DNA of 64,000 nt from Patescibacteria group bacterium (GTDB taxonomy: Bacteria; Patescibacteriota; Microgenomatia; UBA8517): assembly GCA_035260845.1 (NCBI GenBank), contig DATFUL010000008.1, positions 5,709-69,708 on the forward strand, written 5' to 3'. A program made the position numbers and the translations under genes. Shown here one piece after another: positions 2,924 through 19,475 of the stretch; position 1 is the first letter of the stretch; every line of letters begins with the position of its first letter. The notes beneath the pieces were generated by a model. It was not told the DNA's origin and made no database searches. It worked only from the letters and a program-made list of their open reading frames with translations.

Positions 2924-4600
2924 ATGCTTAAAAGTGAGCTTGAGAAAATATTAGGTTACGAGGTTGAAGCTACAGAAAACTCTGATTTTGGTGACTATTC
3001 TAGTAATGTGGCCTTAAGCCACAAACCTCCAAGAGAATTTGCCGAAATGGAATTAGTTAAGTTAAAAGCCAATAAAAAACTTAATGAATTCGTCGATAAA
3101 ATAGAGATTGCCGGCCCAGGATTTATTAACTTTTGGCTAAAACGCGATGTACTAGTAGGCAATTTGACACAGATTGTTGAGGAAAAAGAAAAGTATGGAA
3201 CTAACGACACAGGCAAAGGAAAATTGGCAATTGTTGAGTATTCTTCACCCAATATTGCTAAGCCTTTTACAGTTGGGCACTTAAGGTCAACCATAATTGG
3301 TGATGCTGTTGCCAACTTACTTACCGCTTCAGGTTGGAAAGTTATGCGCGATAATCATCTTGGTGATTGGGGAACACAGTTTGGCAAGCAAATCTATGCA
3401 ATCAAAGCTTGGGGTAACGAGGAAGAAATAGCAAAATCAGAAAATCCTGTTAAGGAGTTGGTTGCTTTATACGTAAAATTTCATGAAGAAGCAGAAAAAG
3501 ATCCTTCAATTGAAGACGGTGCCAGGGCTTGGTTCAAAAAATTAGAAGATGGAGACCAAGAGGCTAAACGGTTGTGGCAAAAGTGTATTGACTGGAGTTT
3601 TGTCGAATTCGACAAAATTTATAGCACTCTTAATGTTTCGTTTAGTGATGAATTTGAAGGTGGCCGCGGCCTTGGAGAAAGTTTTTTTGAGAGCAGAATG
3701 GGAATAGTTATAGATGAACTTACTAAAAAGAGGCTCTTAAAAGTAGGTAAAGAGGGTGCAAAGCTTGTATTTTTCCCCAAAGACAAATATCCGGCGCTTA
3801 TGATTGTTAAAAAAGACGGCGCAACTCTTTACGCAACACGTGACTTGGCAACGGATAAATATAGGAAAGAAAAATACGATCCAGACCTTATTATTAACGA
3901 AGTTGGGAGTGAGCAAGCTTTATATTTTAGACAAATTTACGAGACAGAAAAGCTCTTGGGATGGTTTAAGGATGAGCAAAGGGTTCATATTGGCCATGGA
4001 TTAATTCGTTTTAAGGAAGGTAAGATGTCTACCCGTAAAGGAAATGTTATCTGGATGGAAGAAGTTTTGAATGAAGCCCTTAGTAGGGCCAAAAAACTGG
4101 GCTCTGATAGCGAAAAACTAATTAAAGAAGTTGCAATTGGAGCCTTGAAATATAACGATCTAAAGCGGGATTCAAAAACAGATATTGTTTTTGACTGGGA
4201 CGAAATATTAAACATGGAAGGCAATAGTGGACCTTACTTACAATATACAGTTGCAAGGACAAACTCCGTCCTTTCAAAAGCACGAAGCACGATGCACGAT
4301 GCACGAGATGTTTCGGATTTCGATATTCGGACTTCGAATTTAAACGACGAGGAACTCGGAGTTCTTAGGACTTTAGTCCGATTTCCTGAGGTAATTGCCA
4401 CTGCATCCAAAAATTACTCACCCAACTTATTGTGTAATTATCTTTACGATTTAGCACAAAAATATAATGGTTTCTATAACGCCCACAAGATTATCGGTGG
4501 TGAGAATGAAGAGTTTAAGTTAGAACTAACAAAGGGAGTTGGCCAAGTCCTTAAAAATGGTCTCAAACTTCTTGGAATTCAAACTCCGGAGAAGATGTAG
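2924..4600 (+). CDS. argS: Arginine--tRNA ligase
   Basis: Class I aaRS. PNIAKPFTVGHLRSTIIGD (HIGH-like) and KMSTRKG (KMSKS-like). Length and architecture match ArgRS. Confidence 0.9.
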   Translation: MLKSELEKILGYEVEATENSDFGDYSSNVALSHKPPREFAEMELVKLKANKKLNEFVDKIEIAGPGFINFWLKRDVLVGNLTQIVEEKEKYGTNDTGKGKLAIVEYSSPNIAKPFTVGHLRSTIIGDAVANLLTASGWKVMRDNHLGDWGTQFGKQIYAIKAWGNEEEIAKSENPVKELVALYVKFHEEAEKDPSIEDGARAWFKKLEDGDQEAKRLWQKCIDWSFVEFDKIYSTLNVSFSDEFEGGRGLGESFFESRMGIVIDELTKKRLLKVGKEGAKLVFFPKDKYPALMIVKKDGATLYATRDLATDKYRKEKYDPDLIINEVGSEQALYFRQIYETEKLLGWFKDEQRVHIGHGLIRFKEGKMSTRKGNVIWMEEVLNEALSRAKKLGSDSEKLIKEVAIGALKYNDLKRDSKTDIVFDWDEILNMEGNSGPYLQYTVARTNSVLSKARSTMHDARDVSDFDIRTSNLNDEELGVLRTLVRFPEVIATASKNYSPNLLCNYLYDLAQKYNGFYNAHKIIGGENEEFKLELTKGVGQVLKNGLKLLGIQTPEKM

Positions 4601-4601
4601 C

Positions 4602-5204
4602 TTATTTATTCGGAGAAATTGTCTCTTTCAGTTTTTCTTCAAGTTCGGCCATGGGTTGGACTTCTGATTCTTCCAGTTGTTTATCCAGTTTTCTCTCAAT
4701 ATACCCTGCATCAATTTCTTTAGTCATTTCGTCAAGTTCCGGATCATCTTTTAGATGTTTTTGTTCAGCCAAAATTTGTTTCAGAAGCTGTAGGATCTTT
4801 GTAATTTCCCGCTCAGAAATAAGTTCAACCTGAAGTCCAAGCTCGTTTCTTAAGACATCACGTTGATTTTCCCTGTTTTGACTCATTAGAACTATAACCG
4901 ATAGAATTATAGCTTCAATTGACACAAATGAGTTCATAAATGAATATGGGTAGGGGTCTATCGTAGGGAAGCCTGGAATCTTACCTGTATTGCCCAAAAT
5001 CCAAACTCCATAGACAACGATGTTTAAAAACAAAAAACTAATAGTTCCAAAGTACGAAGTCAAAAAATCTACAACCTTTACGACAAATGGCCTGCGTTTT
5101 AAAGCTTCTGCTTCAAAACTCCTGATTATTTGATGCGATTTGCGATGGTGTTGTTCTGACATCTTTAACATATTTAGAATATACGATATACTGCCTCTAT
5201 GCAA
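4602..5204 (-). CDS. DUF1003-like membrane protein
   Basis: About 200 aa. Two central TM helices and a coiled-coil, acidic C-terminus. Resembles the DUF1003 family. Confidence 0.45.
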   Translation of the reverse strand: MHRGSISYILNMLKMSEQHHRKSHQIIRSFEAEALKRRPFVVKVVDFLTSYFGTISFLFLNIVVYGVWILGNTGKIPGFPTIDPYPYSFMNSFVSIEAIILSVIVLMSQNRENQRDVLRNELGLQVELISEREITKILQLLKQILAEQKHLKDDPELDEMTKEIDAGYIERKLDKQLEESEVQPMAELEEKLKETISPNK

Positions 5205-6476
5205 TATAAATTACAAAAGCTTCCGAATGGTCTTAGAGTTCTAACGGTTCCTATGCAAGGCCTTGAGTCAGTAACTGTTACTGTTTGGGTTAAAACCGGT
5301 AGTCGCTCGGAGGACTTAAAAGTAAATGGAATTAGCCACTTTTTGGAACATATGGTTTTTAAGGGTAGTAAAAAACGCCCAAGTGCAAAAGCAATAAGTC
5401 AGGTGGTTGACTCAATTGGAGGCGAGTTTAATGCCGCAACAAGTAAAGACTGGACCAACTTTTATATTAAGACCAGGGTAGCCAGCATCGAAACTGCAAT
5501 GGACGTACTAAGTGACATGGTTTTGAACCCACTTCTAAAGTCGGACGAGATTGAAAGAGAAAAGGGCACAATTGTTCAGGAAATTGCCATGTATGAAGAC
5601 ACTCCAATGATGCATATTGGAGACGTTTTTGAGGAAGGTGTCTTTGAGGGGAATCCACTAGGCCGTGATACAGCAGGAACTCCAAAATCAGTTAGAGGTA
5701 TCAAAAGAAATGATTTCTTACGATATAGATCGACACATTACAGACCAGACGAAATGATGGTTTCTATTGTCGGCGGAGTAAAAGAAAGTAAAGCCTTAGA
5801 ACTAGCCAAGAAATACTTTAGCTCGCTTAAAAAGTCATCCCAAAAACCTTTTAATATTGAAAAGTTTGCGACTAATCAAACTGCACCAGCTTTCAAACTC
5901 CAAACCAAAAAAGCTGAACAGGCACATCTCATACTTGGTTTCATGTCCGAAGGCCGAAATTACGAAGGCCGTTTTGCACAAAGTCTTCTGGCAACCATTT
6001 TGGGAGGTGGGATGAGTTCACGTATGTTCATTGAGGTCCGCGAGCGTCGTGGACTTGCTTATTCAATTAGAACAGGCCTAGATAGGTACCAGGAAATTGG
6101 CTATTTATCGACTTATGCCGGAGTTGATGTAACTAAAGCCGACCTTGCAATAAAAGTTATTCTTGGTGAATATTACAAAATTCTAGATTCCAAATTTAAA
6201 ATTCAAGCTTCCGAGCTTGTCAAAGCCAAGGAATATCTCAAAGGCCATTTAGCTCTTGCTCTCGAGGATACAAAAGATGTGACATCTTTCTTTTCTGACC
6301 AAGCCTTATTTGCTAATGAAATATTAACTCCCGAAGAAGTCTACAAAAAAGTTGACGCAGTAACTATCGAAGACATACTTTTTGAAGCAAAAAAACTTTT
6401 CGTGCCTTCAAAATTAAATCTAGCCATAATTGGACCTTTTAAGGATAAGGAAAAATTTGTACAATTACTGAAGTAA
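5199..6476 (+). CDS. M16-family zinc peptidase (insulinase/pitrilysin-like)
   Basis: Inverted zinc motif HFLEHMVFKGS (HxxEH) near the N-terminus. About 425 aa with two M16 half-domains. Confidence 0.8.
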   Translation: MQYKLQKLPNGLRVLTVPMQGLESVTVTVWVKTGSRSEDLKVNGISHFLEHMVFKGSKKRPSAKAISQVVDSIGGEFNAATSKDWTNFYIKTRVASIETAMDVLSDMVLNPLLKSDEIEREKGTIVQEIAMYEDTPMMHIGDVFEEGVFEGNPLGRDTAGTPKSVRGIKRNDFLRYRSTHYRPDEMMVSIVGGVKESKALELAKKYFSSLKKSSQKPFNIEKFATNQTAPAFKLQTKKAEQAHLILGFMSEGRNYEGRFAQSLLATILGGGMSSRMFIEVRERRGLAYSIRTGLDRYQEIGYLSTYAGVDVTKADLAIKVILGEYYKILDSKFKIQASELVKAKEYLKGHLALALEDTKDVTSFFSDQALFANEILTPEEVYKKVDAVTIEDILFEAKKLFVPSKLNLAIIGPFKDKEKFVQLLK

Positions 6477-7279: not shown

Positions 7280-8548
7280 TTACTTTATAGTTAAAGTGTA
7301 AAGATTTGCTGAAGTATTAATGCCTCCAAGGTTTGTCAAAATCAAAAGCCTTGTTGTGTTATTGAATGGGAAAGCGAATGTTGAAATGTAGGATCCTGAA
7401 TAAACGACCTCGCGGTTAGTACCGTCATAATCCATAATTACAATTTGACCAGGCTGAGCTAAAAGAAGATGGCGGCTTGTGGACATCCACCTAATTGCCG
7501 GCACCATGTTTTTGATGTCTGGAATTTTGTCGCTAAGGTTTACGGCTTGGTCATAAACTAAGAAATTTCGATCCTCTTTGATATCGTAAATATACGTGTG
7601 ACCTGTTTGAATAGTTCTTTCTTCTCTTTGGGTTGAAGCACCAGGCAAAGGTTTTATTAGTTTGTCAGTCAAAACTCCAGCCGAACTAGCCGTGTAAAGA
7701 ATCATGTTCTGATCAGGGGAGAAGACAAAATCACTGCTTTTTCTGGTTAAGATATCTGTTAGTTCCGCCGGCAGATTTCTTATTAAACTGATATCTTTTG
7801 CAGATTTTTCTTTTTGCCACTGACGTATGGTTTCTAATTTTTGACTTGCGATATTTACTCTTTGATTTTGGGGTTTAAATGATCCTGCATCGAGCACAAA
7901 TATACCGTTTGATGTTGTTAGCATGATCTGTCGGCCATCTGGTGAAAAGGCATAACTAGTGTTAGTTAAGTCGCCGTCCGTGATTCTTTTAGGATCATTC
8001 GAAAAGCCTAAAGGTAAAGAAAATGTATCAAGCGTCCAAAGTCCGATTTTGTCATCACTTGTGCCGACACCAGGCAGAACAGAATAGGCAATTTTACCGC
8101 CATCAAGCGAAATTGTGGGATTAACAGCTCCCGAGAAGGTTACTGGTGAGAGTGATGGTACATTTCTAAAAAGAGAAACGTTGGCCTGGGTTACGACTTC
8201 TTTTTCGATAGTAAGTCTTTTATACCAAGTAAAGAATCCATCCCTCCTTACTTCAACGTCATATGTTCCAGGGGAAAGGGAAATTGTAGCATTTGTGGCT
8301 GTTTTTAAGTCACCATCAACAAAAACCGAGGCTCCATCGGGCTCGGACTTAATAACGAGGATTCCATTGGGCTGAAATTTTAAGGCCTTAAAATCAAATC
8401 TATAGCCCCGGGCATATAAGGAAACGAGCGTGCCAACGGAACCTACTATTATTACACTTAGAATAAAAGCCCAAAGGCGAACCTTAACCATACTCATATT
8501 ATACAACAGGTTGATTCTGATATGTCGTTTTCCATGAATAAAATTCAT
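7280..8548 (-). CDS. Secreted/anchored PEGA-domain protein with a beta-propeller-like C-terminal region
   Basis: N-terminal TM/signal anchor. GASVFVDGDLKTATNATISLSPGTYDVEVRRDGF matches a PEGA domain. Repetitive beta-rich remainder. Confidence 0.5.
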   Translation of the reverse strand: MNFIHGKRHIRINLLYNMSMVKVRLWAFILSVIIVGSVGTLVSLYARGYRFDFKALKFQPNGILVIKSEPDGASVFVDGDLKTATNATISLSPGTYDVEVRRDGFFTWYKRLTIEKEVVTQANVSLFRNVPSLSPVTFSGAVNPTISLDGGKIAYSVLPGVGTSDDKIGLWTLDTFSLPLGFSNDPKRITDGDLTNTSYAFSPDGRQIMLTTSNGIFVLDAGSFKPQNQRVNIASQKLETIRQWQKEKSAKDISLIRNLPAELTDILTRKSSDFVFSPDQNMILYTASSAGVLTDKLIKPLPGASTQREERTIQTGHTYIYDIKEDRNFLVYDQAVNLSDKIPDIKNMVPAIRWMSTSRHLLLAQPGQIVIMDYDGTNREVVYSGSYISTFAFPFNNTTRLLILTNLGGINTSANLYTLTIK

Positions 8549-8578
8549 GGCTGTTGCGTCTAAACGAAAACGACATAC

Positions 8579-8634
8579 CAGGGTTCAATTCATCTCCAAA
8601 GCAAGTTTGGAGTTTTCTTGAATCCTGTTATAAT
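8579..8634 (+). promoter_or_regulatory. Conserved promoter module: CCAGGGTTCAATTCATC + hairpin + TTCTTGAA + extended -10 TGTTATAAT
   Basis: Same architecture and spacing recur at 19669-19724. -10 at 8626-8634. The downstream mreB ATG is at 8645. Confidence 0.45.
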
Positions 8635-8644
8635 CGTCCTACGT

Positions 8645-9652
8645 ATGCTCCGAAAGAATATTGCAATAGATTTGGGAACCGCAAATACCCTCGTTTGGGT
8701 GGCTGGTGAAGGCTTAGTTGTAAATGAACCCACAGTTGTTGCTATCTCCTCAGAAGACAATAAAGTTGTGGCTGTTGGTGAAGAAGCTAAGCTCATGCTT
8801 GGACGTACCCCCGAGGCTTTAATTGCCAGCCGTCCCATGCGTGACGGGGTTATTGCTGATTACCAAGTAACCGAGGCAATGCTGCGTTATTTTATGGGTA
8901 AAGTTACTGGCCGTTTTCAGTTTTTTAAGCCTGAAGTTATGGTCTGTGTGCCTGCAGGGTGCACTCAAGTTGAACGCCGTGCGGCTTTAGATGCCACTAT
9001 GTCGGCCGGGGCTGCACATGCCTATTTAATTGACGAACCCTTAGCTGCCGCAATTGGTGCTGGAATTCCGGTTTCTGCTCCTTCTGGGCACATGATAGTT
9101 GATATTGGTGGGGGCTCAACTGAGGCTGCTGTTATTTCACTGGGTGGTGTGGTTACCCATAAATCGGTCCGTGTTGCGGGAAACAAAATTGATGAGGCAA
9201 TTCAAAGCTATCTTAAAAAGAAACACAATTTAATAGTGGGGGACCAAACTGCAGAGGAAATTAAGCTCAAAATAGGTTCAGCAACAGCTCTAGCCAAAGA
9301 GGAACGTTTAGAAATTTCCGGCCGCGACCTAGTTTTTGGCCTCCCAAGAAGTGTAGTTATAACAAGTACTGAGGTAACCGAGGCTATTCATCCTGTTTTG
9401 ATGCAAATAATTGGGGGGGTTAAAGGGGTTTTAGAGGACACGCCACCCGAGCTAGCCGCTGATATTATAGATAAAGGCATAGTAATGAGCGGTGGGACTT
9501 CCACTTTAAGAAATTTTGATAAACTAATGACAGAAGAAACTGGAGTTCCAGCCCACGTTGCCGACGAGCCCTTACTTTGTGTTGTTCGTGGCACGGGACT
9601 AGTTTTAGAGAACATTGAACTTTGGAAGAGAAGCATAACTAACAAGAGATAG
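8645..9652 (+). CDS. mreB: Rod-shape-determining actin homologue MreB (paralogue 1)
   Basis: IAIDLGTANTLVWVAGEGLVVNEPTVVAI, DIGGGSTE and actin-fold phosphate motifs. The ORF-track start at 8618 is a TTG; the ATG at 8645 is more likely. Confidence 0.85.
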   Translation: MLRKNIAIDLGTANTLVWVAGEGLVVNEPTVVAISSEDNKVVAVGEEAKLMLGRTPEALIASRPMRDGVIADYQVTEAMLRYFMGKVTGRFQFFKPEVMVCVPAGCTQVERRAALDATMSAGAAHAYLIDEPLAAAIGAGIPVSAPSGHMIVDIGGGSTEAAVISLGGVVTHKSVRVAGNKIDEAIQSYLKKKHNLIVGDQTAEEIKLKIGSATALAKEERLEISGRDLVFGLPRSVVITSTEVTEAIHPVLMQIIGGVKGVLEDTPPELAADIIDKGIVMSGGTSTLRNFDKLMTEETGVPAHVADEPLLCVVRGTGLVLENIELWKRSITNKR

Positions 9653-10089
9653 TCGATAACATGAGTTTCATCTACGCTATGGGGTGTATATGATTTGATA
9701 GACTTTACAAAGTTATAGGTGTTATAAAATCAAGTTATAAAAAGTTATAAAGTAAATAATCTAGAATTTAGGAGCATGTTTGCTCAGTCATAAGTAAATC
9801 GCTCATAGTATTGCATACAGGAAAGCAAAGTATTCTGGATAGATTGAGGATAAGTATTTTTACATAGGATCAAAAAAAGAGTCAAAAAATTGTTCAAAAG
9901 TGTGTATTTAATCGCGTAGGAGTGCACCTATTTTTACCTGTAGTATTAGTGATTTTAGACTAATAAACAATATACTATATACGATATCAGAAATTGAATA
10001 TAGGATACAATGGCCTGCGGTAAAAGTGAGGCTAATAGTAGAAAACTCAAAAGTTATAAGTCAAAAGTCAAAAGTTTAGACAAAATATT

Positions 10090-10974
10090 ATGAAAAATAA
10101 TAATCAAATGTCCCAAAATCACGTCAATATATTGGGAATTCATGTACTTAGCACAACAATTCCTCAACTGCTAACAAGCCTGAGAGAAAAGATGGCCCAT
10201 AATATCAAGTTTTCCATTGTTACACCTAATCCTGAGCTTGTTTTGGCTTCAACTAAGAACCCAGAATTAAAAATTGCACTTAATTCAGCCACCTTTTCGG
10301 TTCCGGATGCAATTGGGCTATCACAAGCCACAAAGTATCAATCACTTAACGCACCTTCTAATATATTTTTAAGATTTCCGGTCACTCTCTTTCAAGGACT
10401 GGTAGTTGGCTCTGCAACTTTTTTTAATCGCGATTGGCTTACGAAAGAGTTAAAACCAATTAAAGGCAGGGTTCTTTTTGAAAAATTAATAGAACTTGCT
10501 AATAAAAAGGAGTGGAAAGTGTTTTTCCTGGGCGGAATAGGGGACGAGGCAGAAAAAGCCGCGGAAAAGTTAAGGAAGAACTATAAAATGGTTAAAATCG
10601 GGACTTTTAAGGGTCCCAAGTTAGATGTTGATGGGGAACCCAAGAGCGAATCAGATAAAAACCTACAAAAAGAAGCATTTAGTCTGATTAATAAGTTTTC
10701 GCCGAAACTACTCTTTGTGGCATTTGGTAATCCTAAGCAGGAAATCTGGATTCATAAGAATCTTAAGTATTTAGATGTTGGTGGGGCAATGGCTGTAGGG
10801 GGAACTCTCCGTTACGTAGCCGGAATAAGTAAGTTGCCACCCAAATGGATGGCTAAGGCTGGACTTGAGTGGGTTTGGAGACTAATTACCGAACCCTATC
10901 GTCTTGGTCGAATCTTTAATGCCTTTCCAATCTTTCCTTTAAGAATTTTTTGGTTCAAAGTTACTGATCGTTGA
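10090..10974 (+). CDS. WecB/TagA/CpsF-family glycosyltransferase
   Basis: VNILGIHVLSTT...FFLGG...LLFVAFGNPKQEIWI matches the WecG/TagA family. Confidence 0.7.
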   Translation: MKNNNQMSQNHVNILGIHVLSTTIPQLLTSLREKMAHNIKFSIVTPNPELVLASTKNPELKIALNSATFSVPDAIGLSQATKYQSLNAPSNIFLRFPVTLFQGLVVGSATFFNRDWLTKELKPIKGRVLFEKLIELANKKEWKVFFLGGIGDEAEKAAEKLRKNYKMVKIGTFKGPKLDVDGEPKSESDKNLQKEAFSLINKFSPKLLFVAFGNPKQEIWIHKNLKYLDVGGAMAVGGTLRYVAGISKLPPKWMAKAGLEWVWRLITEPYRLGRIFNAFPIFPLRIFWFKVTDR

Positions 10975-11475
10975 CCAATTTTTAGCAAAATCCTCCTTGG
11001 CCCTGTAAATTCTGCCTTCAACAGCCCTTTCACTAATACCTAAAATCTTGCCAATTTGTTCGTAAGAGTAGTCCTTCCAATATCTAAACCATAAAAGGCG
11101 GCGTTTTTCGTATGGCAAAAGATTCAAACAATCATTAACCGAAAGCTTTAATTCCTTAAGTGCCAAACTCTCCTCAGGGGACAGATTTGTACTATCAATA
11201 TAGCTCAAACTATCTAGGAGTGGAACAATAAAACGGGAACTTGTGTTCACTTGGTCGTGGTAATAGTCTGCAATTTTGTTTAATGCAATTCGGCAAAGCC
11301 AAGTAAAATAACTACTTTTGTGTCCAAAAGTTTTGTAGCCTTTCCAAGCGGCTACAATTGTTTCTTCAAAAACTTCCTCAACCGCAGCTTCGTCTTTTCT
11401 TAAATGTTTGGCAATGAACTTAAAAAGAATCGGGGAGTATTTTTTATAAAGAGAGTCAAATCGTGGGCTTTTCAT
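10939..11475 (-). CDS. ECF-type RNA polymerase sigma-70 family factor
   Basis: Region 2 (FEETIVAAWKGYKTF) and region 4 HTH (YSYEQIGKILGISERAVEGRIYRAKE). Confidence 0.75.
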   Translation of the reverse strand: MKSPRFDSLYKKYSPILFKFIAKHLRKDEAAVEEVFEETIVAAWKGYKTFGHKSSYFTWLCRIALNKIADYYHDQVNTSSRFIVPLLDSLSYIDSTNLSPEESLALKELKLSVNDCLNLLPYEKRRLLWFRYWKDYSYEQIGKILGISERAVEGRIYRAKEDFAKNWSTISNFEPKNS

Positions 11476-11518
11476 TAAAATACAGACTAATTATATATCA
11501 TGATACAATTCAGCTAAT

Positions 11519-11764
11519 ATGCCAGAAAAATTAATATTTGTTAACCCTGGTGAAGCTCGGCGACTCGGATTGATCATAAAAAGGCTGACTGAGGGGGGAC
11601 TTTTAGAAGAAGGTGAGCAGATCATGGTTGGATCAGATTCCAGTCTGACTTCGTCTAAGGCTGCAACACAAATTAGAGTCGAACATATTTACAGAGATGG
11701 TACAAAAGGGCATGGACCAACAGATGTTGTTTCTGAGAAGGGCAGCGTAAGTTTTCGTAAATAA
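11519..11764 (+). CDS. Hypothetical protein (81 aa)
   Basis: ORF divergent from the sigma factor gene. No motif. Confidence 0.3.
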   Translation: MPEKLIFVNPGEARRLGLIIKRLTEGGLLEEGEQIMVGSDSSLTSSKAATQIRVEHIYRDGTKGHGPTDVVSEKGSVSFRK

Positions 11765-11772
11765 TTCCAAAG

Positions 11773-12294
11773 ATGGCTTCAAATAAAACCCAAATGGTTT
11801 TGGTTGACAAAAACGACCACGTTTTGGGTTTCAAAGAAAAATTTTCCACCCACAAAATTCCGGTACCTCTTCACCGCGCGATCTCGATAATTATATTTAA
11901 TAAAGATAAGAGTGAGATGCTTATTACCAAAAGGGCAAAGATTAAGCCAACCTGGCCATATATTTGGACAAATGCAGTTTGCTCTCATCCGTATCCAAAC
12001 GAAACATACAAAAAAGCAGCAGAAAGGCGACTTTACGAAGAACTTGGCTTTAAAACTCCAATTAAAGAGGTTTTTAGATTTACATATAAAGCCGAAATGG
12101 ATAATAAAGTTTGGGGAGAGCACGAGTATGATGTTTCATTTGTTGGGAGGTATGAGGGGAAAGTTCATCCCAATTCCAATGAAGTTGCAGGCTATGAGTG
12201 GATAAAAATAGTGGATCTCAAAAAAGATCTAAGAAAGAGTCCTAAAAAATACTCTCCCTGGTTTAAAATAATTCTAAAGAAACTAAAGGTTTAA
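11773..12294 (+). CDS. idi: Isopentenyl-diphosphate delta-isomerase type 1 (Nudix)
   Basis: LHRAISIIIFNKDKSEMLITKRAKIKPTWPYIWTNAVCSHP matches the IDI-1 core, including the conserved Cys and the Nudix box (ERRLYEELG). Confidence 0.8.
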   Translation: MASNKTQMVLVDKNDHVLGFKEKFSTHKIPVPLHRAISIIIFNKDKSEMLITKRAKIKPTWPYIWTNAVCSHPYPNETYKKAAERRLYEELGFKTPIKEVFRFTYKAEMDNKVWGEHEYDVSFVGRYEGKVHPNSNEVAGYEWIKIVDLKKDLRKSPKKYSPWFKIILKKLKV

Positions 12295-13172
12295 TATTTT
12301 CTATCTAAGATGAAATCAGTCAGTTCCTTTAGCTCAGTTCTTGCAGGTTCGCTATTTAAAAATCCCAAATCTTTTTCAAAAATGTCTTTTGCTTTTTGCT
12401 TCATCTCTTCTGCTAATTTTCTTGTATAGTCCACTCCCTGTGTGTTGGCCAAAGTTACTTTACTTTCCTTTTTATCTTGTTCCAAATCAAGTATGTCATC
12501 AACTAATTGGAAACATCTGCCTAAATACAAACCAAACTCAGTAATTTTATCAATTTGATCTTTTGAGGCCCCTGCTACAATTGCTCCAAGCCTCATAGGC
12601 CCTGCAATTGAGTAATAAGCACTTTTACTGTCTGCCACAAAAAAGTATTGATCGTTATCGATTTTGCCTGATTTTTCATTGTTCCACATTTGCTCAACTC
12701 CTTGCCCCAAGGCTGTTCGCATTAGCATTTTGTAAAATTCATCGCTTACCTCTTTAGAGCCAACATCATTTACCATTTTCCACATAATCATATGCAAAGC
12801 GTCACCCGCATTTATGGCAAGTTCTGGTCCATAAATTTTGTGGAGGCTGGCTTTACCGCGTCTTTCATCTGAATTATCCTCGATATCATCGTGAATCAAA
12901 ATCCATTCTTCAGAAAGCTGCATTGCCGCAGCCACGGCAACCGCCTTTTTAATATCACCATTAAGTGCTTGGGCGATTAGTAAAACTGCAGTAGGCCTTA
13001 AATATTTACCTTTTCGCTCTGGATATTCGCGATTAATTTTCCAATATGTGTCAACTTCTTTTTTGAACTTTTCGGGGATTGTGAACTGAATGGGGAACAG
13101 TGGGTCTTTTAAATACTTATCAATATCTGGCCAAACGAGAGCCTTTGTCTTTTCTAGCGTGTCAGTTATCAT
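12291..13172 (-). CDS. Short-chain (E)-polyprenyl diphosphate synthase (FPP/GGPP synthase family)
   Basis: First DDxxD (ILIHDDIEDNSDERRG) and second DDxxD (FQLVDDILD) motifs. Confidence 0.85.
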   Translation of the reverse strand: MITDTLEKTKALVWPDIDKYLKDPLFPIQFTIPEKFKKEVDTYWKINREYPERKGKYLRPTAVLLIAQALNGDIKKAVAVAAAMQLSEEWILIHDDIEDNSDERRGKASLHKIYGPELAINAGDALHMIMWKMVNDVGSKEVSDEFYKMLMRTALGQGVEQMWNNEKSGKIDNDQYFFVADSKSAYYSIAGPMRLGAIVAGASKDQIDKITEFGLYLGRCFQLVDDILDLEQDKKESKVTLANTQGVDYTRKLAEEMKQKAKDIFEKDLGFLNSEPARTELKELTDFILDRKY

Positions 13173-13217
13173 AATCTAAGTATATCAGCTTGTGTCACTA
13201 TGATATAATTTCTAGGC

Positions 13218-14468
13218 ATGACAGACGTGATCAGCCTCCCCAAAGGTACTGTAATTCCTAACCACATAGCCATGATTCTCGATGGCAACAGACGCTGGGC
13301 CAGAAGCCGTGGTCTTGCTCCTTGGAAAGGGCATTATTATGGCTATAAAGCTGTTAACGCCCTGGCGCACGCCACACGTAAATTAGGAATCCATACTTTT
13401 ACTGTTTGGGCTTTTTCTACCGAAAACTGGGAGAGGCCCCAAAAAGAAATTGACGAGATTATGAACATTTTTAGACAAGCCCTTAAAGAAACCGAAAAAG
13501 ACTTTCATAAAGAACATGTTGCTATGGTTCACTTAGGCCGTAAAGACAGATTACCTGCCGATATCCGTGCCGAAGTCATAAGGATTGAAAATGAAACTGC
13601 CAAATATTCAAAAGAGCACATTTTTAATATGGCGATAGACTACGGTGGCAGGGATGAAATTGTTAGGGCAGTTCAAAAAATAGTTAGTGAAGGCGTTCCG
13701 GCCGAGAAAATCACCGAAAAGAAATTTGCAGAATATTTGGACACTTATAATCAACCATACCCGGATCCGGACTTATTTATTCGCACAAGCGGGGAACAAA
13801 GAACTAGCGGACTTTTGCCCTGGCAAATGGCTTACACAGAATTTTATTTTGAACCAGAACACTTGCCGGACTTTTCTCCAACAAAGCTAAAAGAGGCAAT
13901 TTTGGACTATTCAAGGCGCAGGCGTAGGTTTGGCGGCAATGATGCAGTCGAGCATTTTGGATTTGATCCGCAAGTTTTGGCACACCTGGAACTTAAATGG
14001 TGGCGCTTGGGTAATATTCCGGAAGGAATGAAATTCCGCGAATATGCAATGAAGCATTTATCCGAACAATTTGGCCTTTCTAAAAGTTTAGCGGGGGAGG
14101 CAGCCCATTTACTTCTCGAAGCTATAAAGGAGGAAAACGACAACAAACTGGAAAAAGCTACCAATAAACTTAAAAAATTCTATACCTTAATTAAAAATGA
14201 AGTTAAATTGGCTTTTGAACCGGAGATTGTGGCCTCTTTGGAAGTTAGAATGCGCAACGAAAAAGGAGAATCAGAAGACACAACTCGCGAATATTTGGCG
14301 GAGGTTTATAGAATTAGTCTTTTCCAAGCCGCAAAAGCGGCCCACCTTAAAGTTTTGGCAGCAGTTGAAAGGAATCTTGCTCAAGCCGGAATGGGGGAAA
14401 ATCATTGGGCCAAGGCAGAAGACTACCTCACTAAATATTATATGGCGCTTAAGGAAAGGGTGGCCTAA
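13218..14468 (+). CDS. uppS: Undecaprenyl-diphosphate synthase (cis-prenyltransferase) with ~170-aa helical C-terminal extension
   Basis: PNHIAMILDGNRRWA, FSTENWERP and RTSGEQRTSG motifs in the first ~245 aa. The ORF then continues uninterrupted for ~170 aa with no UppS counterpart. Confidence 0.8.
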   Translation: MTDVISLPKGTVIPNHIAMILDGNRRWARSRGLAPWKGHYYGYKAVNALAHATRKLGIHTFTVWAFSTENWERPQKEIDEIMNIFRQALKETEKDFHKEHVAMVHLGRKDRLPADIRAEVIRIENETAKYSKEHIFNMAIDYGGRDEIVRAVQKIVSEGVPAEKITEKKFAEYLDTYNQPYPDPDLFIRTSGEQRTSGLLPWQMAYTEFYFEPEHLPDFSPTKLKEAILDYSRRRRRFGGNDAVEHFGFDPQVLAHLELKWWRLGNIPEGMKFREYAMKHLSEQFGLSKSLAGEAAHLLLEAIKEENDNKLEKATNKLKKFYTLIKNEVKLAFEPEIVASLEVRMRNEKGESEDTTREYLAEVYRISLFQAAKAAHLKVLAAVERNLAQAGMGENHWAKAEDYLTKYYMALKERVA

Positions 14469-17210: not shown

Positions 17211-17328
17211 AACTCAGGCATTTAAAAAATCAACTACTAAAAAACACAAAATGACACTTGACACTCTTGTGGCGCTTTGATATCTTCTGACTAGGAAAGA
17301 TAAAGGACAGGCAGGGGACTATAACAAA

Positions 17329-17547
17329 ATGGAACCAACTACTAAAAAGAAAGTCAGATTAGAAAATCTTCCAGATTTACTTACCGTGCGCGAGGTTGCA
17401 GATATATTAAGAGTCTCACCACTCACAATTAAACGGTGGGGCAAACGCGGCAAACTTCCAGCTATAAGAATAAACAGTAGAGGTGATAGGCGCTATAAGA
17501 AAGAAGCCGTACTTTGGTTATTGGGGATGCAGTCCAAGGAAGAGTAG
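17329..17547 (+). CDS. Small helix-turn-helix DNA-binding protein (excisionase/MerR-like HTH)
   Basis: LLTVREVADILRVSPLTIKRWGKRGKLPAIRI is an HTH_17-type motif. A TTGACA-17-TATCTT promoter sits at ~17262-17290. Confidence 0.55.
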   Translation: MEPTTKKKVRLENLPDLLTVREVADILRVSPLTIKRWGKRGKLPAIRINSRGDRRYKKEAVLWLLGMQSKEE

Positions 17548-17744
17548 TCTTCTTTCTTGGCTCCGAGCTTTGCTCGTAGTAAAAAAGAAGCTGTCCTCTG
17601 GCTTCTAGGCATGCAAAGTAAGGAAGAAAAACTCTTCAAATTCGAAGTACGAAGTACGAATTTCGAAACAAATTCCAAACGTTTTGAAAATTCAAATTTA
17701 GAAATTTGACACTGTTTCGATATTAGAATTTCGTATTTAATATC

Positions 17745-19475
17745 TTAATCTAATTTGATCTGTAAATTCCAAAAATGAGAGTAGAGGCTGCCTTTTTTGG
17801 CTACTAGCTCTTTGTGAGTTCCAACTTCTTTTATCTTTCCATTCTCCATGACTACAATTTTATCCGCTCTCATAATTGTACTTAGCCTGTGAGCAATAAT
17901 AATGGTAGTTTTGCCGCGTCTAGCCTTCCAGAACGCATCCTGAATAAGTTTTTCCGATTCGGAGTCAAGATGGCTTGTAGCTTCATCAAAGACAACAATG
18001 TCAGGATCACTTAGAATCATGCGTGCAATTGCTAAGCGCTGCTTTTGGCCTCCGGAAAGTTTAACTCCACGCTCACCAACCTCTGTATTGTATTTAAGTT
18101 TTAAGCTATCAATAAAAGTGTCGATATTTGCAAGCTTTGAGGCCGATTTAATCTCGCTTAACTTTGGATTATCCTTTCCATAACCAATGTTGTAAGCAAT
18201 TGTGTTATTAAAAAGAATTGGTTCTTGGGGAACTACTCCCACAAAACTTCTTAAAGTGCTTTTGTTAAAATCTTTAATGTTAATGCCGTCGACCGTAATC
18301 TCACCCGAGTCCAAATCATAAAATCTCATGAGTAATTTAGCTAGGGTGGTCTTACCACTTCCGCTTCTTCCCACTAAGGCTATCGACTGGCCTTCCTCAA
18401 CTTTCAGGTTAATTCCATTAATAGCGTTTTTACTGCGGCCGTTATAAGTAAAATGAACGTTATTAAAATTAATAATACCGGAAACTCGGCTGATATTAAC
18501 TGGTTTTGAGGGATCTTTTACCTCAATTGCGTAGTCAAGTAAGCCAAAATATTTTTGCAGATCAGTGAATGATTTTGAGATATCTCTTAAACTCCAGACT
18601 AAATCCCAAAGTCTTGGAAACAGGATACTGATAAATGCAGTTACCAAGACGAAACTACCAACAGTCATGTGTAGATTTGTTGTGCTCACAATGCTAAAAA
18701 ATAAAATTGCAAAAATAGTAATATTAAAAAGAGTTCCAAGAGTAATATCTATATAGCGGTAGGTTAGGGTAAAGTCCCAAAGAGATTTGTACCAGGGTTT
18801 AAAAGCATTTGCTAGCCTGGTTTTTTCGAACTTTTCTCTGGCAAAAAGCTTAACTGTTTCATAATTAAGCATGTTGTCAGTAATAATGTCTGATACATTA
18901 TCTTCTTCTTCATTAAAAATTCTTCGTCTTTTGACATTTAAGGAGATAAAGAAATTGGCAATAATTAGAGTAAGTATGATTGAGACGCCTGCAATAATTG
19001 CAATTCGGAAGTCCAGGGCAATAAAGAAACAGAACATGACTATTATACTTACCGTAATGTCTAAGATCCTGTGGTGTAGGATAAAGAACAAGTCAAAGAA
19101 TGCATTGTCACCACGTTTAAAGGCAGATATTAAAGAGCCCGTGCTTTTATTAGAATGAAATACAAAATCAAGATCTTGTACCCAGGCAAAAATTTCTTGC
19201 CTAGCTAGTTTTGCGGCATCGAATGTTGCTTTATCACCAAACCAAAAGCTGATCTCAACAAAGAAAAGAGAAAGAACACTTGTTGCAATATAAAAAATAA
19301 GGATTCTAAGTAAGGTTGGGTAATTAAGTGTTGGAATTGCGTCCACAAAAAGTTTATAAAAATAGGGAATTAGGTTGTCTAGGGCCCCAGCCATAATCGC
19401 ACCAGCCACGAGCATTGTGTAGCCTAAACGGTTTGTTGTAGCAAACCTGAAAAATGTCTTTAAGATTTTATACAT
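17745..19475 (-). CDS. ABC exporter, fused permease/ATPase (MsbA-like)
   Basis: Six-TM N-terminal domain. Walker A GRSGSGKTT, signature LSGGQKQRLAIAR, Walker B IVVFDEATS. Confidence 0.85.
   Translation of the reverse strand: MYKILKTFFRFATTNRLGYTMLVAGAIMAGALDNLIPYFYKLFVDAIPTLNYPTLLRILIFYIATSVLSLFFVEISFWFGDKATFDAAKLARQEIFAWVQDLDFVFHSNKSTGSLISAFKRGDNAFFDLFFILHHRILDITVSIIVMFCFFIALDFRIAIIAGVSIILTLIIANFFISLNVKRRRIFNEEEDNVSDIITDNMLNYETVKLFAREKFEKTRLANAFKPWYKSLWDFTLTYRYIDITLGTLFNITIFAILFFSIVSTTNLHMTVGSFVLVTAFISILFPRLWDLVWSLRDISKSFTDLQKYFGLLDYAIEVKDPSKPVNISRVSGIINFNNVHFTYNGRSKNAINGINLKVEEGQSIALVGRSGSGKTTLAKLLMRFYDLDSGEITVDGINIKDFNKSTLRSFVGVVPQEPILFNNTIAYNIGYGKDNPKLSEIKSASKLANIDTFIDSLKLKYNTEVGERGVKLSGGQKQRLAIARMILSDPDIVVFDEATSHLDSESEKLIQDAFWKARRGKTTIIIAHRLSTIMRADKIVVMENGKIKEVGTHKELVAKKGSLYSHFWNLQIKLD

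Follow-up and report, generated by a model that had tools for sequence, protein, structure and literature searches.

The duplicated gene end

The stretch of DNA analyzed here, referred to as the window, comprises 64,000 nucleotides of contig DATFUL010000008.1 from a Patescibacteria group bacterium of the class Microgenomatia (assembly GCA_035260845.1). On its forward strand, the window carries a gene for a small helix-turn-helix (HTH) protein of 72 amino acids (aa), and the last 16 codons of this gene are encoded a second time a short distance downstream. In this work, we found that the 3′ end of this gene is a recurrent insertion hot spot for DNA arriving with a replacement gene end, and that the second copy in the window is probably the former end of the gene itself, displaced when its 3′ end was replaced. 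Related loci from other sequence sets are denoted by L numbers, and the features of the locus are as follows.

17258–17286, plus strand: promoter-like site of the HTH gene (TTGACA, 17 nt, TATCTT), with 10 of 12 matches to the consensus and a consensus match only
17329–17547, plus strand: small HTH gene, 72 aa, with Pfam domains HTH_17 and MerR_1 and with BldC structures as its best solved relatives
17497–17547, plus strand: copy 1, the working gene end (KKEAVLWLLGMQSKEE and the stop codon TAG), with the minority codon type TGG TTA TTG; putatively imported
17548–17580, plus strand: 33-nt spacer after copy 1, with CTTCTTTCTT at 17549–17558 and the hairpin CGAGC-TTT-GCTCG at 17564–17576
17581–17628, plus strand: copy 2, the putative relic of the ancestral gene end (a pseudo-3′ end), for which translation is not expected
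17629–17631, plus strand: AAA in place of the stop codon of the orthologues (a putative lost stop, from comparison with orthologue ends)
17636–17744, no strand: palindromic element with TTCGAA and CGAA heptads, a putative separate insertion, with arms at 17645–17670 and 17713–17738
17745–19475, minus strand: convergent ATP-binding cassette (ABC) transporter gene, 576 aa, used as synteny anchor (Pfam ABC_membrane and ABC_tran on the identical gene in L007)

The last 16 residues of the HTH protein (KKEAVLWLLGMQSKEE), encoded by copy 1 at 17497–17544, are re-encoded in frame by copy 2 at 17581–17628, with an offset of 84 nt (28 codons) between the copies and 33 nt (11 codons) between the TAG at 17545–17547 and copy 2. 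The two copies differ at 14 nucleotides across 11 codons, and all 14 differences are synonymous. These include one Ser codon (TCC in copy 1 and AGT in copy 2) and two Leu codons (TTA TTG and CTT CTA, respectively). Past the TAG, the frame stays open for 53 codons, up to a TGA at 17707–17709. An earlier sequence-only reading of this region had noticed the repeat of the same 16 residues in frame, with silent differences only and a switch of the Ser codon box, and our recount confirmed this observation. The measurements themselves were revised, as that reading had given a gap of 20 nt past the stop, 11 nucleotide differences, and 57 open codons after the TAG.

Only 18% of the possible single substitutions in the duplicated stretch are silent, and 82% alter a residue. 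Furthermore, random synonymous encodings of the 16-residue peptide based on the codon usage of the window differ pairwise by 10.0 ± 2.3 nt, and the probability of 14 or more differences between two such encodings is 0.065. The observed number of differences thus indicates that the two copies retain no nucleotide similarity beyond the constraint imposed by the peptide. The longest exact run common to both is 8 nt (AAAGAAGC), located at the left edge.

These numbers bear on two simple explanations. The first is an old local tandem duplication of an 84-nt unit in this lineage, followed by independent drift of the copies. The units are indeed tandem and in frame, and one other locus (L026) contains two and a half 78-nt units in tandem. 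However, such drift is expected to be mostly non-synonymous, and none of 200,000 simulated random sets of 14 substitutions was entirely silent. In addition, the synonymous sites are saturated, and the relic has no replacement or indel. We consider this explanation very improbable. The second is an artefact of assembly or a chimera, which the sequence-only reading had also listed and for which the only argument is that the pattern is odd. Two other assemblies, which were made by different pipelines (L006, JGI 3300002907; L007, Logan SRR5258706), contain the entire arrangement at 100% identity, with the identity spanning 5.6–5.8 kb, and many projects have yielded analogous structures, in 15 further lineages. 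Since exact runs shared by the copies do not exceed 8 nt, misassembly caused by a repeat is implausible, and we regard an artefact as next to impossible.

A nearly invariant HTH protein

The HTH protein matches the Pfam families HTH_17 (E = 1e-10) and MerR_1 (E = 6e-10), as well as MerR, over residues 17–68 of 72, and its top matches in the PDB are the BldC entries 6AMK and 6AMA (E = 1e-8, residues 11–65). Based on these profiles, the gene product is predicted to be a small BldC-like winged HTH protein of the MerR/Xis type that has a single domain and lacks a coiled coil or an effector domain. The BldC of Streptomyces has been described, including its cooperative head-to-tail binding to DNA direct repeats, and is likewise a MerR-like winged HTH protein of ~70 residues without dimerization or effector domains (PMC5859096). 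However, BldC belongs to another phylum and has only moderate identity to the protein studied here.

Homologues of this protein were found at least 438 times in species-representative genomes and at least 502 times in metagenome contigs, both counts being lower bounds, and relatives at 77–99% aa identity are present in both sets. The protein is near-universal in Microgenomates of the candidate phyla radiation (CPR), including Woesebacteria, Levybacteria, Shapirobacteria, Beckwithbacteria, and others. Moreover, the identical 72-aa protein is encoded elsewhere, in different gene neighborhoods (orthologues L001–L010), by genes that match at 164–182 of 219 nt (75–83%). Judging from these comparisons, the purifying selection on the protein appears to be extreme and unusually strong for a small HTH protein.

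Because the protein is nearly invariant at 75–83% nucleotide identity, alleles of different lineages differ only silently. As this is true of any two alleles, the silent-only pattern in the window does not show that copy 2 is translated. The sequence-only reading had concluded that copy 2 has been under protein-level selection, which holds for its past as a working gene end and not for its present place.

Tail relics in other lineages

To our scan of 172 related loci, which represent 159 distinct lineages, each locus contributed a search for further copies of the C-terminal peptide of its own gene. Such tail relics were found in 16 of the 159 lineages, namely, the window, L015, L026, L027, L044, L060, L063, L073, L079, L106, L110, L118, L124, L143, L152, and L168, with 20 relics in total. 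In these 172 loci, every relic shares the strand of the gene and lies on its downstream side, and no upstream or opposite-strand relic was found. The duplicated segment consists of the last 10 to ~26 codons and never of the whole gene, which disagrees with the fused tandem paralogue proposed by the sequence-only reading. Up to three relics occur in a row. Relative to the gene, the relic is in frame 0 in ten cases, frame 1 in one case, and frame 2 in eight cases, and in-frame stop codons are present between gene and relic in several lineages. Most relics still have their own stop codon. Among the differing codons over the 20 relics, 88 are synonymous and 20 are non-synonymous, and decay is visible in L073 (five changes), L026 (G to D), L168 (Trp to Cys), and L118. 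These patterns would fit former gene ends that were working until recently.

The same survey bears on the possibility that copy 2 is translated, either by readthrough of the TAG into a 125-aa protein with a doubled C-terminal helix or from a TTG at 17557 into a 50-aa peptide that shares this helix. The in-frame position of copy 2, the 53 open codons, and the lack of any non-synonymous change are all consistent with translation. However, TAG is an ordinary stop codon here, ending 12 of the 45 long open reading frames (ORFs) in the window, and the 26 open codons after copy 2 have a chance of ~0.1 in AT-rich sequence by our own estimate. There is also no purine-rich ribosome-binding site before the TTG, and the 50-aa ORF has no Pfam family. 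The sequence-only reading, which had raised readthrough, pointed to homologues as the place to look for longer forms with the doubled motif. A doubled motif or a long extension was found in 0 of 150 distinct homologous proteins, 136 of which end 14–17 residues after GDRRY, and relics in other lineages are out of frame or behind stop codons. Taken together, the varying frames, the decay, and the lack of extended homologues exclude readthrough or a translated second copy as a general explanation, and for the window we consider translation highly unlikely.

Probable ancestral and inserted copies

Several comparisons indicate which of the two copies in the window is native. Of 158 lineages, 123 have tails that resemble copy 2 more than copy 1, and 21 have tails nearer to copy 1. 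By blastn, copy 2 is 85–95% identical to working tails elsewhere. Copy 1 is matched best by L020 (43/48), a lineage outside the nearest relatives of the remaining part of the gene. The position of copy 2 points in the same direction. Once the palindromic repeat is discounted, copy 2 is ~8 nt from the end of the ABC transporter gene, and working tails are located 2–40 nt from this gene in L100, L012, L019, L008, and L013. The same convergent ABC neighbor is present in L008, L010, L013, L019, L020, L096, and L100. Furthermore, the CTCTTCA that follows copy 2 matches a CTTC(A) motif found after the stop codon in other lineages, and AAA stands where the orthologues have TAA.

An analogous case is provided by L124 and L118. 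The first relic of L124, together with 275 nt downstream, is the homologue of a segment of L118 that comprises the working tail and the sequence after it. In L118, the same cassette with a radical S-adenosylmethionine (SAM) enzyme directly follows the gene, and a decayed relic is found at the far end of the cassette. This alignment indicates that the relic is the positional counterpart of the working tail of a relative and that these arrays grow at the gene-proximal end. These comparisons give good support, short of proof, to a polarity in which copy 2 would represent the ancestral gene end, and copy 1, the TAG, and the 33-nt spacer the inserted piece. The inserted unit would be 84 nt in length (17497–17580, with the register ambiguous by a few bases), and there is no ORF inside.

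DNA between the tails

The spacing from the stop codon to the Trp codon of the relic, or from one relic to the next, ranges from ~30 nt to ~2.7 kb, and the longer inserts contain genes. In L063, a pair of toxin-antitoxin (TA) genes encoding DUF6922 and AbiEii is located between two tails, followed by a 38-nt spacer and a third relic. In L060, the insert contains a HicB-like ORF on the minus strand (identified by eye, with no family search). In L143, a 38-nt spacer leads to a relic, which is followed by an ORF of 496 aa and then by another relic. In L124, the relics are located at +180, +2528, and +5260 and bound two successive cassettes (8469–13434), each with a radical-SAM enzyme, a Cys/Pro-rich small peptide, and a Zn-peptidase-like protein, an organization that resembles clusters for ribosomally synthesized and post-translationally modified peptides. 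The cassettes of L063, L124, and L143 encode TA, radical-SAM, peptidase-like, and unknown proteins. The two tails share exact tracts of 47 nt in L063 and 44 nt in L079. One peptidase-like ORF of L124 (10093–10779) runs through a tail relic, and its last 10 residues are WLLGMQEKTE.

Across the ORFs flanking relic-bearing loci (98 in total), Pfam Radical_SAM was found in two, and no integrase or resolvase was found among the 25 families listed of the 69 detected. The genes that flank the arrays are housekeeping genes (MreB, WecG, and others). AbiEii toxin genes are the first downstream ORF in 6 of 140 loci. Pairs of DUF6922 and AbiEii (a type IV TA system) are located directly downstream of the HTH gene in L063 (6215–7040), L147 (876–1686), L153 (~8030–8898), L096 (~4500–5380), and L071 (2050–2658, minus strand). 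The pairs in these five lineages have their own extended -10 promoter, and a relic is present only in L063. The idea that a relic always accompanies an insertion was rejected on this basis, as the AbiE cassettes in L096, L147, L153, and L071 have none. In L001, a gene for a large serine recombinase (Resolvase/Recombinase/Zn_ribbon_recom, 9827–10219) that runs off the locus was observed ~4.6 kb downstream of the HTH gene. L001 encodes the identical HTH protein near this recombinase, and no relic was found within the locus sequence examined.

Spacer anatomy and a possible role of copy 2

The relics can be divided into two classes by their left boundary. In the long class (the window, L026, L073, L079, L106, and the first relic of L124), the relic begins with the KKEA codons or slightly ahead of them. 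For the short class (L015, L027, L044, the third relic of L063, L110, the first relic of L143, L152, and L168), it starts exactly at the Trp codon, with a G-run before it. Left boundaries were found in at least three positions, namely, the Trp codon, KKEA/RRY, and RINS.

Spacers homologous to that of the window and with the same layout are present in L026, L073, L106, and L124. In the spacers of the long class, a polypyrimidine run right after the stop codon is the exact complement of the KKE codons. In the window, CTTCTTTCTT complements the KKE codons at 17497–17506 without a mismatch and 17581–17590 at 9 of 10 positions. The pair of KKE codons and complement is AAGAAAGAAG/CTTCTTTCTT in the window and L124 and has co-varied to AAGAAGGAAG/CTTCCTTCTT in L106. 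The polypyrimidine run is followed by a short GC stem with a TTY loop, in which the pairing is kept with differing sequences (CGAGC/GCTCG, CAGC/GCTG, and AGGC/GCCT).

The spacers of the short class are copies of small dispersed elements with CCCC...GGGG termini that are also found away from the gene. An element of this kind, 70–80 nt in length, forms the spacer between tail and relic in L015 (6205–6279), L110 (1790–1862), and L152 (362–442). Further copies were observed on the minus strand in L011 (8998–9072), L124 (7748–7826), and L161 (1026–1104), and those in L124 and L161 are inverted just upstream of the HTH gene. For this element, Rfam gave no match, and none of the folds was convincingly conserved. 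At the same point, the flanks of L143 and L152 are identical and their small elements differ.

The coding tails show a related pattern. The Leu codon after the Trp codon is CTT in 66% of the single-copy genes, compared with 35% of the Leu codons elsewhere in the same genes, and this CTT creates a GAAGC-N9-GCTTC inverted repeat in the coding tail. The repeat is kept in relics and is often lost from the working tails of relic-bearing genes. Correspondingly, TTR Leu codons after Trp are found in the working tails of 9 of 15 relic-bearing genes vs. 19 of 143 single-copy genes (p = 1.2e-4). After the stop codon, CTTC occurs within 20 nt in 53 of 156 lineages, compared with 14–21 of 156 in control windows. 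The linker motif GCTTCGCG was no more frequent in 3′ untranslated regions than in control windows.

These features raise the possibility that copy 2 is kept for a function of its own as a cis-acting RNA or DNA element, for example, in termination, mRNA stability, or the binding of a protein or recombinase. Copy 2 and the spacer form a hairpin whose 3′ arm is provided by the KKE codons of the relic. The spacer hairpin layout persists over different stem sequences, the exact 10-nt complements co-vary in L106, the relics keep the inverted repeat that the recoded working tail has lost, and the post-stop CTTC motif is enriched. However, the variation among relics has the three-base periodicity of coding sequence, unlike that of a nucleotide motif, and relics are decaying in several lineages (L168, L026, and L073). 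Furthermore, 90% of the lineages manage without a relic, and the relics of the short class lack the KKE arm. The minimum free energy fold obtained for this locus in the window is only marginally better than those of shuffled sequences (z = -2.1), Rfam gave no credible match for the spacer, the relic, or the palindrome, and no intrinsic terminator with a terminator-like U-tract was detected. We therefore consider a cis-acting role unlikely, though less so than translation.

Probable replacement of the gene end

The explanation that we favor is that copy 2 is the displaced former 3′ end of the gene and the scar of a 3′-end replacement; on the comparisons above, we consider this likely. An 84-nt piece would have recombined into the HTH gene at the ...RRY|KKEA... 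boundary and would have carried a differently coded version of the last 16 codons, a TAG, and the 33-nt hairpin-forming spacer. We infer that this piece originated from an allele of another Microgenomates lineage. The gene would now end in the imported tail, with its original tail pushed 84 nt downstream, where the latter may have since lost its stop codon by a change from TAA to AAA. A separate palindromic repeat would have landed later between the relic and the ABC transporter gene. That all 14 differences are silent would be explained by both tails having evolved as working ends of a near-invariant protein in different genomes. Among the four options offered by the sequence-only reading, an integration event that supplied a replacement 3′ end is the one that the evidence supports.

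By homologous recombination, homology on the left side could come from the conserved gene body and on the right side from the tail or relic, such that an existing segment of gene, cargo, and relic could be knocked into any genome that has the gene. Older ends would be left as a row of relics, with the newest insert adjoining the gene. Thoroughly recoded pairs of tails probably persist as a result of survivorship, offering no homology for deletion by recombination.

With respect to the enzymology, the clues pull both ways. The recombinase-less inserts, the variable length of the duplicate, and the long identical tracts in L063 and L079 argue for homologous recombination. Competence genes are prevalent in Patescibacteria, and the gene transfer detected in this group has mostly taken place among its own members (PMC12455944). 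The exact recurrent boundary, the conserved hairpin layout, and the ordered arrays argue for a site-specific process with an enzyme encoded elsewhere. Our preference is for homologous recombination after DNA uptake over a trans-acting site-specific recombinase.

Several observations weigh against the replacement of the gene end as set out above. The exact left boundary at the Trp codon, after a G-run, recurs in 7–8 lineages with different spacers, and the conserved layout of the spacer hairpin recurs as well; a site-specific process accounts for both better than simple homologous recombination does. In the window, no crossover tract is visible, as the copies share at most 8 identical nucleotides. 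The 5′ flank of the relic (17559–17580) is far more degraded than the next 48 nt, unlike what simple uniform decay would produce. A deletion in an L124-like state could equally have produced L118. We found no close relative of the window genome in which the gene is unduplicated, such that the polarity rests on position, codon type, and the analogy with L124 and L118. A polarity test based on nearest relatives, which are only ~80% identical, gave nine lineages for and six against. Finally, no phage or plasmid contig with the tail came up when IMG/VR was searched with a degenerate tail pattern, and no donor molecule, circular form, or recombinase was identified.

Two phage contigs from IMG/VR contain HTH homologues that are 63–73% identical to the host protein (L091, 1774–1971; L092, 7944–8153). 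Their neighbors resemble genes for single-stranded DNA-binding proteins and for recombination and replication, as judged by eye with no family search. The two homologues match the host protein up to ...INSRGDRRYKKE and then diverge exactly at the duplication boundary of the long class. A phage or plasmid attachment site (attP) that carries the tail was considered and rejected, as the sequences concerned in both contigs are full-length paralogues with different tails in recombination/replication modules and do not represent attachment sites.

A further-reaching possibility is that the 3′ end of the gene is the dedicated docking site of a cassette system in Microgenomates that has no recombinase of its own, with stacked units and old ends as boundaries. 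Each unit would combine a synonymous new end for the gene with a hairpin and, optionally, with cargo, for example, TA/defense genes or radical-SAM peptide clusters. Movement could depend on a trans-encoded recombinase that recognizes the hairpin or tail, or on natural transformation with the gene body and tail as adjacent homology arms. If so, the thorough silent recoding of the new end would be adaptive, blocking deletion or re-targeting. We put this forward tentatively; it is a possibility with perhaps one chance in a few.

The palindromic repeat

The sequence between the relic and the ABC transporter gene had been described in the sequence-only reading as a quasi-palindromic TTCGAA-rich stretch, and this description is accurate. 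The region at 17636–17744 folds as a long imperfect hairpin, and its arms (17645–17670 and 17713–17738) are 81% complementary. Related copies were found by blastn and alignment at unrelated intergenic positions in L023 (405–545 and 2385–2510), L044 (4485–4600 and 4880–5020), and L153 (1010–1530), and by blastn only in L074, L142, L124, and L095. In L153, two arms flank an ORF that resembles the four-helix-bundle "23S rRNA intervening-sequence protein", by which the copy in the window looks like an empty form, similar to a miniature inverted-repeat transposable element. Based on these matches, the element appears to be a member of a dispersed family of palindromic CGAA-heptad repeats in Microgenomates, with putative mobility and independent of the duplication.

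Comparison with known systems

By analogy, the closest precedent appears to be the icd/e14/icdC system. Passages of PMC13626634 that cite Hill et al. (1989) describe how e14 or phage 21 supplies Escherichia coli icd with an alternative 3′ end that differs mostly silently, with the original end remaining as the icdC pseudogene. In both cases, a conserved gene is entered near its 3′ end, the protein is left nearly unchanged, and the old end survives downstream as a fragment. However, e14 is a 15-kb prophage that has its own integrase and excises, whereas the insert in the window is 84 nt and the cassettes elsewhere are at most 2.7 kb each. The system described here also differs in having no recombinase in the listed families, a duplicate of variable length (10 to ~26 codons), up to three relics, and a gene for a 72-aa HTH protein in CPR bacteria as its target. 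Target-restoring integration is expected to leave a partial 3′-end duplicate flanking the insert and an intact gene, and this arrangement was found in the window and in 15 other lineages. An integrase inside the insert was not found, as the 84-nt insert of the window has no ORF and the 25 listed of 69 families include none. When the copies of the site were compared for a shared core, the exact matches were 8 nt in the window, 47 nt in L063, and 44 nt in L079, with at least three left-boundary positions.

Repeated insertion at one site and rows of site copies are also known from islands that accrete at tRNA/tmRNA genes or dif sites, including the Xer-dependent integrative mobile elements exploiting Xer (IMEX). 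Some of these IMEX elements use a recombinase encoded elsewhere. In contrast to these islands, the site studied here is the coding end of a protein gene, and its copies differ at nearly every silent position, where those of the islands share a nucleotide core. The tail is unlike the dif consensus, by eye only and with no computational comparison. In the complete chromosome CP066686, the gene is located at ~88% of the length and not near the midpoint, which is a weak point against dif and assumes that the record starts at the origin.

The rows of small recombinase-less cassettes in L124, L143, and L063, which are bounded by one repeat and by boundary hairpins and appear to grow next to a fixed gene, resemble integrons. 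However, an integron has an intI tyrosine recombinase and attI beside its array, and no recombinase was found next to these arrays among the listed Pfam families. The R and L boxes of attC (GTTRRRY/RYYYAAC) were not seen by eye in the hairpin-forming spacers; no box scan or attC model search was made. Unlike in integrons, the repeat here is a displaced coding segment, the cassettes have their own promoters (TGGTATAAT before AbiE), and the orientation varies, with HicB in L060 and one ORF in L124 on the minus strand. Polymorphic toxin loci (Rhs and CdiA) are similar in that new 3′ ends are recombined at a conserved sequence and old ends are displaced as promoterless "orphan" fragments. The difference is that those loci swap a toxin domain together with an immunity gene, whereas here the protein stays identical and the variable cargo follows the stop codon. 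A variable repeat/template repeat pair of a diversity-generating retroelement was rejected, as all four bases are affected by the 14 differences and no residue is changed. The 198 nt that separate the HTH gene from the ABC transporter gene also contain no ORF of the size of a reverse transcriptase.

A literature search found no description of this locus. The feature in the window alone is of modest interest, and its wider significance is in revealing a recombinase-less hot spot of repeated insertion at an ultra-conserved gene of the BldC type throughout Microgenomates.

Implications

Little changes for the window itself, in which the HTH gene is intact, and 17581–17628 is best annotated as a pseudo-3′ end and not as coding sequence. 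A more general caution is that synonymous-only differences between two copies are no proof of translation when the protein is almost invariant.

The CPR/Patescibacteria have tiny genomes with few recognized mobile elements, and their gene exchange is poorly understood. The locus described here is a hot spot defined by sequence, which can be found in any Microgenomates genome by a search with one 72-aa protein. Insertions at this site leave datable scars, and accessory cassettes such as AbiE, HicB-like modules, and radical-SAM peptide clusters accumulate there. The locus may therefore be used to measure gene flow between lineages, as well as in the hunt for the responsible recombination system.

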